A stretch of DNA of 63,036 bases, filler included, from an uncultured archaeon (lineage in GTDB: Archaea; Nanobdellota; Nanobdellia; Woesearchaeales; CAIVOO01): the NCBI GenBank assembly GCA_903842985.1. It is 5 parts of 5 records of this genome, joined end to end, with 100 filler letters (N's around TTAATTAATTAA, not from the genome) between each part and the next. Parts side by side here need not be neighbours in the genome. Positions count along the whole stretch, not along the records: positions 58,779 to 63,036 come from CAIMOB010000015.1; 4 more parts are not named here. The stretch is one strand, 5' to 3'. Positions 60,001 to 63,000 of the stretch are shown here, piece after piece. Each line of letters starts with the position of its first letter. Position 1 is the stretch's first letter. The position numbers were made by a program.

Positions 60001-63000
60001 GAACGCGCAAGTAAGAAAGGAAAGGCGCTGCACATCATGGGGCTTGCGTCTGACGGCTGCGTCCATTCGCACATCAGGTTTTTGTTTGCAATGCTCGAGC
60101 TGTGCAAGAAAAGGAATTTCAAGAACGTTTATGTTCATATGTTTACAGACGGAAGAGATACGCCGACAACGTCTGGGATAAAATACCTAAAGCAGACTGA
60201 AGCTGAAATGAAAAAGTTAGGCGTCGGTAAAATCGCCACAGTCATCGGAAGATACTATGCAATGGACAGGGACAGAAGATGGCAGAGGACAGAGAGAGCA
60301 TACAATGCGCTGCTTGCGATAAACACGCCAAGGTCAAAGAGCGCAGAAGAGGTAATAACTAATTCCTATAAGCAGAAAATCACAGATGAATTCATACTTC
60401 CAAAAGTAATCGGAGATTTCAACGGCGTCAAGGACGGCGATTCGATTGTTTTCTTCAACATCCGCTCTGACAGGGCAAGGCAGATATCGATGGCTTTTGA
60501 ATTGAAGAAATTTGACCATTTCAAGAGAAAGCAAGTCAATGTAGACCTTGTCGGAATGTGCGAATACAGCCACGACCTGAAAATGCCTGTGGCGTTCCCG
60601 CCAATCCATCCGAAGAATGTGATTGCAGACGTGATTTCGAAAGCAGGCCTGAAGCAGTTCCACACAGCAGAGACAGAGAAATACGCCCACGTTACTTATT
60701 TCTTCAACGGCGGAATAGAGCCACCGAAGAAAGGTGAGGACAGGCTGCTGATTCACAGCCCGAAGGTCGCGACCTATGACTTAAAGCCTGAGATGAGCGC
60801 ATACGAAGTCACAAGCAATTTGCTGAAAAGAATAAACTCAGAAAAATACGATTTCATTGTCATAAATTACGCGAATCCTGACATGGTCGGGCACACAGGA
60901 GTTTTCAAGGCAGTTGTTTCTGCGCTTAAGCACGTTGACAAGCTCCTTGGGCAGATTGTTGAGGCAGCAAGGAAGAAAGGATACATCTGCATCATAACAG
61001 CTGACCATGGCAATGCAGAGAAGATGCTTTACGACAGCGGAGAAGTCTGCACAACGCATACGACAAACCCTGTTCATTTCATTGTCGTTGATGATAAGAA
61101 ATACAAATTAAGGAATAAATGCGCTCTTTACGACGTCGCTCCCACAATTCTGAAGCTGATGGGAATAAAACAGCCGAAGGAGATGAAGGGAAAGAGCATT
61201 ATTGTTTGAAGTTTTCTGAAATCTTCTTGTAGACATCGTCTTTAAAGTCAATGTTTACCAGTCTGAAATTTTTGTTCTTTAAATTTGCAATCATTGCCTC
61301 AAGGTCTTCAGCAGCTTCAAATCTTCGGAGGATATTTCCGCCGTCACAAATCTTGCAGCAGAATTTTTTGCCATCCATTTCAAGCTTGATGAATTGAATT
61401 GTTGGGTCATTAAAGTAAAGCAGAGCCAGGTCGCATTGCTCTTTTGTTGCAGCGCCGTGGAACCTGTAGTCTTTTTCCATGAACGGCACACCCTTACCTT
61501 TCACTGTATTTGCAACTATAATCGCAGGCGCATCCTGTTTTTCAGCGTTTGAAACAGCGCAATCTATTTCTTCAAACATGTGGCCGTCAATCTCCTGCAC
61601 ATGCCAGCCATATTCCCGCCATTTCGATGCCAAAGGCGCAACACCCATTATGTCTTTTACAGAACCGTCAAGCTGGAGCTTGTTGCAATCGATAAATCCA
61701 ATCAAGTTTCTTAGCCTGCCCTGCCTGTAAAAGTGCACAGCAGACTCCATTGCTTCCTTTACCATGCCTTCCTGCGACTCGCCGTCCCCCATTAGAAAAA
61801 ATACTTTGTTGTCATTGTCATCAAGCTTGTTTGCCAATGCCAAGCCAACTGCATAGCTTAATCCCTGCCCAAGCGAGCCGCTGGAGCCGATTACGCCAGG
61901 CGTCTTTTCATATGAGGGATGCCCTTCGAGCTTGACAAAGCCTTCGGGAACTTCAAGTTTTCTAAAGTACTTCAGGTTTTCCTTTGTGAAATATCCTTTC
62001 CTTGCAAGCATTGAATAAAGAGTTGGCGCTGCATGGCCTTTTGACAGGTGAAAGCAGTCATTTTCCTTCATTTTATGCGAATACAGATAAACAAGTATTT
62101 CAACGCAGGACAAAGAGCCGCCCGGATGGCCAGAAGCAGCTTCTTTAATCATTTCAATTATCTCGATCCTTGTCTGCTTTGCTATTTCTTCCAGATTTTC
62201 AAATTGCATTGGTAAAGAATCACCCTTGATTTTAATTAGGCAACTGAAATTTATATACTTTTCCAAAAACCGAAACTAATTTAAATCGCTGAAAACAGAG
62301 GATTTTCATGGAGCTTTCAGAAATAAAATCTAAGATTCCTTCGGAATTGTATTCTGTGCTTGAGAAGGAGAACATTGTAGAATTAAGGCCGAGCCAGGAA
62401 AAATCAGTCAATGCAGGGCTTCTGGAAGGCAAAAGCCTGCTTGTCTGCACGCCGACTGCATCAGGCAAGACATTGATTGCAGAGCTTGCATCATTGAAAT
62501 CAATTCTTGAAGGAAAAGGCAAGGCAATTTACATTGTTCCGCTCAAGGCGCTTGCAAGCGAAAAATTCAAGGAATTTAAAAGAAGATATGAGCATCTGAT
62601 AAAAATAGCGATGTCAATCGGAGACTTGGATTCTGCTGACCCTTACCTGCATAACTATGATTTGATTATCACGACATCTGAAAAATTTGATTCATTAATC
62701 AGGCATAAGGCGCCATGGCTAGATGAAATAAAGACAGTTGTTGCTGACGAAGTGCATCTGTTGAATGACCCAGGCAGAGGCCCAACATTGGAAATTCTGC
62801 TGACAATTCTGAAGCAGATGCTGAAGAATGTCCAGATAATTGCTTTGTCCGCCACAATCGGCAACCCAGAAAAGCTTGCAGGATGGCTTGATGCAACGCT
62901 TGTAATAGACGACTGGCGTCCGGTAGTGCTTCACAAAGGGATTTATATGGATGGCGAAGTTGAGTTTTACTGACGCTCAATAATCTTTTTGTATTTCTCA

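Follow-up and report, generated by a model that had tools for sequence, protein, structure and literature searches.

A Hel308 helicase encoded by two unlinked genes across the archaeal order Woesearchaeales

Split genes in DPANN archaea are already known, and so is the case of the ribosome quality-control factor RqcH. Table 1 of Podar 2013 (PMC3655853) lists among split genes of Nanoarchaeota the superfamily 2 (SF2) helicase Lhr (NEQ003/409 and Nst172/239), Dph2 (Nst222/440), reverse gyrase and a ‘predicted RNA-binding protein’ (NEQ438/506 and Nst176/251), both Nst1 halves of which belong to arCOG01695, and the same study proposes that the split proteins are reconstituted in trans. For the split reverse gyrases of N. 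equitans and M. kandleri, separately encoded subunits form an active heterodimer (PMC4117796). Supplementary file 3 of Padalko 2024 (PMC11237513) contains cluster 76.1, helS (arCOG00553), as a non-syntenic split in 18 assemblies, 8 of them from Ca. Woesearchaeota, and cluster 73, arCOG01695 (NEMF/RQC2), as split in 57 (Micrarchaeota 16, Woesearchaeota 12, Altiarchaeales 8, Nanoarchaeales 2); the available main text of that paper contains none of the terms ‘helicase’, ‘Hel308’ or ‘Rqc’. The survey's finding had put forward Hel308 and RqcH, along with Dph2, as new cases of gene fission. This claim has to be narrowed, because the RqcH and Dph2 splits, as well as a two-piece SF2 helicase (Lhr), stand in Table 1 of PMC3655853, and the Hel308 split itself occupies a row in the supplement of PMC11237513. 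What stands as new is the position of the Hel308 cut, its fixation and its mechanism, no description of which was found in a literature search that left most subscription journals outside; the available texts of PMC10946056, PMC8301817, PMC8407392 and PMC13623763 do not mention the Hel308 split, and no paper on split RqcH under that name was found.

The window analysed here is a stretch of 63,036 nucleotides assembled from five parts of the genome of an uncultured member of the Woesearchaeales (GCA_903842985.1). It includes the front part of Hel308, hel308-N, as an open reading frame of 221 codons with its own ATG and TGA. The only Pfam domain in its product is DEAD (RecA1), and the protein aligns to residues 7-213 of the 720 of P. 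furiosus Hjm and to residues 1-218 of the 702 of A. fulgidus Hel308. The features of the locus are the following:

62308..62973, plus strand: hel308-N gene, covering the Q motif, RecA1, the linker and the first RecA2 beta-hairpin (open reading frame, Pfam, alignments, profile tiling)
62280..62285, plus strand: TATA-like hexamer at -28 to -23 relative to the ATG, probably the gene's own promoter
62452..62472, plus strand: Walker A (motif I), residues 49-55
62746..62757, plus strand: Walker B (motif II), DEVH, residues 147-150
62848..62856, plus strand: motif III, SAT, residues 181-183
62917..62970, plus strand: tail belonging to RecA2, with a beta-hairpin whose first strand is predicted to pair with rear-chain strand 167-173, residues 204-221 (start of Hjm domain 2 in PMC2636818, alignment, predicted strands, complex model)
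62971..62973, plus strand: TGA stop at the conserved cut, where TAA, TGA and TAG all occur among relatives

The partner gene, hel308-C, lies outside the window (C23:1002-2519, minus strand); its product of 505 aa aligns to Hjm 229-704, and the two pieces tile the NCBIfam profile PRK02362 without overlap (1-217 and 220-710 of 739). RqcH is likewise encoded in two pieces, a front one of 367 aa (C13:21684-22787, plus strand) and a rear one of 255 aa (C38:13906-14673, minus strand). Searches of this genome, which is 92.65% complete, by tblastn with intact Hel308 and RqcH queries returned one piece each per query and no intact copy of either gene, as expected from the survey's claim that both are split in two.

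The contig carrying hel308-N terminates 63 bases past the stop codon, so that this single locus is unable to exclude an assembly fault, which the relatives do exclude. In a 93% identical relative, the TGA is replaced by TAA, and the two genes differ by 65 synonymous versus 16 non-synonymous codons. Contigs from four DNA runs, all of a single study, give patchy coverage of the stretch; one of them is identical and passes the stop by 10 bases, an overhang too small to be taken as bridging. No RNA runs were listed as holding the stretch. Upstream of hel308-N, the divergent gene at 61199-62266 (minus strand) encodes a stand-alone transketolase N-terminal subunit and is convergent with a gene for a BPG-independent phosphoglycerate mutase at 59620-61209 (plus strand), both assigned by Pfam, whereas Pfam gives no match for the frames at 58826-59122 and 59112-59750. 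On the contig of hel308-C, a bacterial-type sigma-70 factor with Pfam regions 2, 3 and 4 is encoded two genes away (C23:3724-4968, minus strand).

The Hel308 split was said to recur in nearly all Woesearchaeales, and a larger sample bears this out. Among 121 genomes of the order (the present one included, about one per family, each at least 80% complete), the front half was matched in 112, every time in an open frame of 197-350 aa, and the rear half in 116. Both halves were found in 109 genomes, the front alone in three, the rear alone in seven and neither in two; all these counts include one genome marked unpublished (G105). The co-occurrence is not above chance, as about 107 genomes with both would be expected for two independent near-universal genes. 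Linkage in the relatives, left aside by the survey, agrees with its description of the halves as unlinked: in the 11 pairs found on a single contig, the starts are separated by 3.9-425 kb and the halves are never adjacent, and all four single-contig genomes have both halves, 38-425 kb apart. The ten genomes with one half are all multi-contig drafts. In a profile search, five of the seven rear-only genomes, including one rated 100% complete, showed no trace of the front half, and two of the three front-only genomes, one of them also rated 100% complete, showed no trace of the rear half; in the remaining ones, the search found contig-end fragments (two genomes) or a weak 251-aa frame (one genome). 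Of the 12 genomes missing either half or both, four encode a Ski2-like paralogue as one chain, 641-658 aa long.

The position of the cut is nearly constant, with 55 of 60 distinct front halves stopping 18-21 residues past the tryptophan of the WRP motif. A tally of the stop codon at the cut in 68 locus rows, which include repeats, gives TAA in 44, TGA in 14 and TAG in 10; use of three stop codons rules out read-through. None of the five long rear frames holds the front half: four result from inteins (4 of 116 genomes; two confirmed by Pfam and two by motif) and one from a C-terminal methyltransferase fusion. The inteins are of the LAGLIDADG type; three interrupt motif V and the fourth motif VI. 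In the remaining case (G053, L126:3056-3775), hel308-C is in frame with a Methyltransf_30 domain, a single instance of either a fusion or a lost stop. Among named records with this short gene, eight carry the title Ca. Woesearchaeota, three Nanoarchaeota/Nanoarchaeia, two ‘archaeon’ and four Methanosarcinales. In the Methanosarcinales-titled records, the short gene is 66-73% identical and has the identical end site; they are probably mislabelled or mis-binned. One Woesearchaeota-titled record has an intact 727-aa gene, which clusters with the sister order. The order carries two selected, unlinked genes with one cut.

The front piece had been described as RecA1. This domain is indeed present, but domain 1 of Pfu Hjm comprises residues 1-197 and domain 2 residues 198-399 (PMC2636818), so that the front chain is more than RecA1 and also contains about 19 residues of RecA2, ending in a beta-hairpin with predicted strands at 211-214 and 217-220. 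The cut accordingly falls inside RecA2, and the front half would bring a beta-strand that completes the sheet of its partner. All 67 front halves examined have intact Walker A, DExH and SAT motifs. Motif IVa is present in each of 51 rear halves (the 30 best scorers, 20 from distant or near-closed genomes and one from a locus holding both halves), and motif VI is kept, judged from its six commonest variants. Across the two chains, motifs Q, I, Ia, Ib, II (DExH), III, IVa, V and VI are all intact; RecA1, RecA2, winged helix, ratchet (domain 4) and HhH (domain 5) follow in this order; and the genes group with intact Hel308 in searches and trees. They differ from the family in not forming one chain of about 700 aa that reaches the curated cut-off: the halves score 228.6 and 322.5 bits against NF040935 (cut-off 1200) and 294.8 and 466.5 bits against PRK02362 (cut-off 887), which explains why annotation misses Hel308 in this order. 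Judged by sequence, the pair probably works like Hel308 and is classed here as a two-chain variant.

Structural modelling points in the same direction. The front-half model superimposes on 2VA8 with a Z score of 28.8 and an rmsd of 1.4 over 198 residues. The rear chain folded alone has good local confidence and a loose domain arrangement (high mean pLDDT, intermediate pTM), with an rmsd of 6-7 Å to Hel308. The complex of the two halves was predicted with high confidence, against practically none for the best control; this supports binding, although the model may reflect memory of solved one-chain Hel308 structures and would then express likeness rather than binding itself. Of 157 solved pairs, 116 attain the mark used for such complexes, as do 2 of 215 mismatched ones. 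Separate runs agree in at least 97% of contacts, with a high pLDDT for the partner. The best-defined modelled contacts pair front residues 208-213 with rear residues 167-173, completing the sheet; front residues 162, 166 and 193 are placed against rear winged-helix residues 226-231; and the interface includes rear motif VI (153-161) and the front P-loop (49-51).

SF2 enzymes require motifs I-III and VI in one cleft. As motifs I-III are on the front chain and motif VI is on the rear one, all kept, the ATP site must form between two polypeptides, as the survey had argued. We consider it probable that the Hel308 of this order consists of two proteins which assemble into one enzyme. In this scheme, a single ancestral hel308 would have broken once, in or before the ancestor of the order, in the turn after the first RecA2 beta-hairpin, and the halves would then have moved apart, each with its own start and stop, as observed, and probably with its own promoter. 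The two chains would join non-covalently into an ordinary five-domain Hel308, the tail strand of the front chain completing the RecA2 sheet of the rear chain, the RecA1 helices packing on the winged helix and the ATP site forming between front motifs I-III and rear motif VI. By analogy with the family, the heterodimer would carry out ATP-driven 3′-5′ translocation and annealing in DNA repair. A TATA-like motif at 22-36 bases upstream occurs in 35 of the 63 front genes and 30 of the 45 rear ones, compared with 3 of 16 equivalent internal places in intact genes, an enrichment that suggests separate transcription. Most split rear halves (45 of 51) also have a winged-helix insertion, seen as unrelated sequence in 1 of 16 intact genes and in none of three genes cut at a second site (below). 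The possibility that this insertion is a new clamp that grips the front chain was considered and found no support, as residues 262-272 are outside the predicted interface and six split genomes lack the insertion.

Alternatively, the halves could be partly or wholly independent, the rear chain binding and annealing DNA without ATP and the front chain joining it at times or serving another partner. This appears unlikely, because the motifs divided between the chains, VI on the rear one and I-III on the front one, are of use only in combination and yet are kept, the docking strand is retained at a fixed length, and no conserved neighbour suggests another partner, the commonest one at front-half loci being a gene for an SRP54/FtsY-type GTPase (21 of 46 loci, for example L003:86-1495), absent beside hel308-N of the window. 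Very little speaks for covalent rejoining of the products into a one-chain Hel308 by split-intein splicing or RNA trans-splicing. Nanoarchaeota reportedly have a split intein-type DNA polymerase, and the rear gene does host the cis-inteins described above. Trans-joined tRNAs are also in use in Nanoarchaeota (PMC3655853). Against this, neither end has an intein piece, the front chain stopping after the hairpin and the rear one resuming at the next Hel308 residues; every rear gene has its own ATG; and the transcripts have no complementary ends, the pairing energy averaging -23.9 kcal/mol for 41 true pairs and -22.4 kcal/mol (SD 6.7) for cross pairs, with no excess. An assembly or gene-calling artefact, stop read-through or a decaying pseudogene, to which the nearby contig end might point, can be dismissed given the identical cut in 112 genomes, one per family sampled, the three different stop codons with no RecA2 sequence beyond them, the separation of the halves by hundreds of kb in single-contig genomes, and purifying selection evident from the kept motifs and the excess of synonymous differences.

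Returning to the two-protein enzyme, its origin was traced in a class sample of 201 genomes, 29 of the order and 172 of other orders. In the order, 27 of 29 genomes match the front half, in frames of 215-350 aa. In other orders, 81 of 172 genomes have a match, of which 70 lie in frames of at least 671 aa (one of them probably a paralogue). Of the 11 short frames, seven continue past the cut site and owe their shortness to contig ends, a gap or a frameshift at another place, one stops ahead of the site and three are cut at the second site; none of the ten that could be judged has the cut of the order. The front half is 60-66% identical to intact genes of the sister order. In a quick tree of concatenated halves, all 47 split pairs lie on one side of a branch with support of 35, nested among intact genes, and 46 of them group at support of 95; in a tree of the rear half only, the split forms need three changes, strong branches force only one, and a single origin is compatible. 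This nesting indicates that the split is derived. The view of the survey that the Hel308 and RqcH fissions are old and fixed is supported. The split may predate the order, as several families with cut RqcH gave no Hel308 match with the queries used. A mirror-distance test of the halves gave r 0.85 for 47 pairs and was left out of the argument, because genome-wide rate differences also give such a value and no control gene was included.

A second, different cut is found in the sister order, where 26 of 39 genomes match Hel308 and three, from three families, are cut after motif VI: the front gene ends exactly after this motif and the rear gene starts just before the strand at 167-173. The halves are on a single contig with four unrelated genes between them in G264 (L142/L140), about 25 kb apart on opposite strands in G208 (L143/L139) and on different contigs in G234 (L144/L141). 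The three genomes occupy separate places among intact genes, and a single clade is rejected (p-AU 0.0026, quick tree); the cut thus arose at least twice, or was undone. Two genomes sharing the genus label of G234 have an intact hel308. The two Hel308 cut sites flank one same strand pair. In a bolder reading, which we regard as rather improbable as a whole, these two strands at the RecA2 edge would serve as a natural site of breakage, used more than once, and through fission a subunit switch would have taken the place of the internal one by which Hel308 alternates between annealing and translocation, with the rear chain as an ATP-independent annealase or DNA clamp, the front chain as a detachable motor subunit, and the level of the separately transcribed 221-aa front chain deciding between the two activities. 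A 2026 review (PMC13623763), citing unpublished data, describes Hel308 domains 4-5 without the RecA core as a hyperactive annealase, which leaves room for a detachable motor.

The fission of RqcH is a separate and wider event. Its pieces tile NF041120 (RqcH_arch) without overlap (2-376 and 381-645 of 645) and match human NEMF 1-379 and 463-645; NFACT-N, HhH, the coiled coil with middle domain, NFACT-R and the C-terminal part are found across the two chains, although these are not the single chain of about 650 aa and score 281.5 and 316.4 bits for a cut-off of 400. Piece ends and profile positions, read against the known domain order (bioRxiv 10.1101/2020.09.03.281279), place the cut within the middle domain, between the two helices of the coiled coil. 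The rear piece, previously described as NFACT-R, does contain this domain and also carries the return helix of the coil and the C-terminal part; the halves would re-zip through the coil, having been separated at its tip. The recurrence of this split in the order, also claimed earlier, is evident in the class sample: of its 29 genomes from the order, 28 match the rear piece, in frames of 251-316 aa, and 27 the front piece, in frames of 302-449 aa. Where both pieces share a contig (three pairs), they are separated by 180-419 kb. The RqcH matches in other orders number 112, of which 78 are long, at 527-747 aa, and the other 34 short; all five short ones that were checked have the same cut. In two genomes of other orders, G276 (L239) and G189 (L240), the RqcH halves lie on one strand, 1.4-2.7 kb apart, with one gene between them, which by motif we take to resemble that of cysteinyl-tRNA synthetase; this arrangement is possibly close to the original break.

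The Dph2 front piece was matched in 178 of 201 class genomes, and the 150 matches listed divide into 147 with short frames (68-171 aa) and three with longer ones (342-346 aa). Its gene (C23:5420-5677, minus strand) is about 2.9 kb from hel308-C here, less than 1 kb in G041 and G023 and about 2 kb in G278 and G283. The Dph2 cut is nearly class-wide, that of RqcH is found in the order and several other families, and that of Hel308 is confined to the order among the genomes searched. These distributions indicate nested ranges of the three fissions which, as rare genomic changes, could help to order the branches of the class; the Hel308 split is in addition a sharp marker for one large DPANN order. 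With a two-chain SF2 motor whose ATP site is divided, mixing of the halves could probe RecA1-RecA2 coupling as well as the brake that the RecA core is proposed to exert on annealing.

Comparison with known systems places the locus as follows. With archaeal Hel308/Hjm (2ZJ2 of P. furiosus, 2P6R of A. fulgidus, 2VA8 of S. solfataricus; arCOG00553, K03726), it shares the five domains in order, all motifs and a nested position in the tree, whereas it differs in the two unlinked genes, the cut about 19 residues inside domain 2, the winged-helix insertion in most rear chains and the failure of either piece to reach the curated NCBIfam cut-off. The RqcH pieces similarly match NEMF and tile NF041120 as do aRqcH, Rqc2 and B. 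subtilis RqcH, and differ from these in being two genes with the cut in the middle domain between coiled-coil helices. PMC11237513 provides table rows from an automated screen, and no Hel308 cut site, fixation in the order or mechanism was found in its available text. Split inteins and trans-splicing are not the system at hand, as there are no intein halves at the inner ends and no complementary RNA ends. The phenomenon is rather that of the Nanoarchaeota split genes, with separate, unlinked, intact halves and a lineage-wide single cut site; RqcH and Dph2 are the same families, and Lhr in unlinked genes is another SF2 helicase, although Hel308 is absent from the table in PMC3655853 and Lhr is one 880-aa frame in the present genome. 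As in the split reverse gyrases (PMC4117796), the subunits are separately encoded, their association being modelled here; in those enzymes, however, the helicase module is left whole, whereas in the Hel308 of Woesearchaeales it is the ATPase site itself that is divided.
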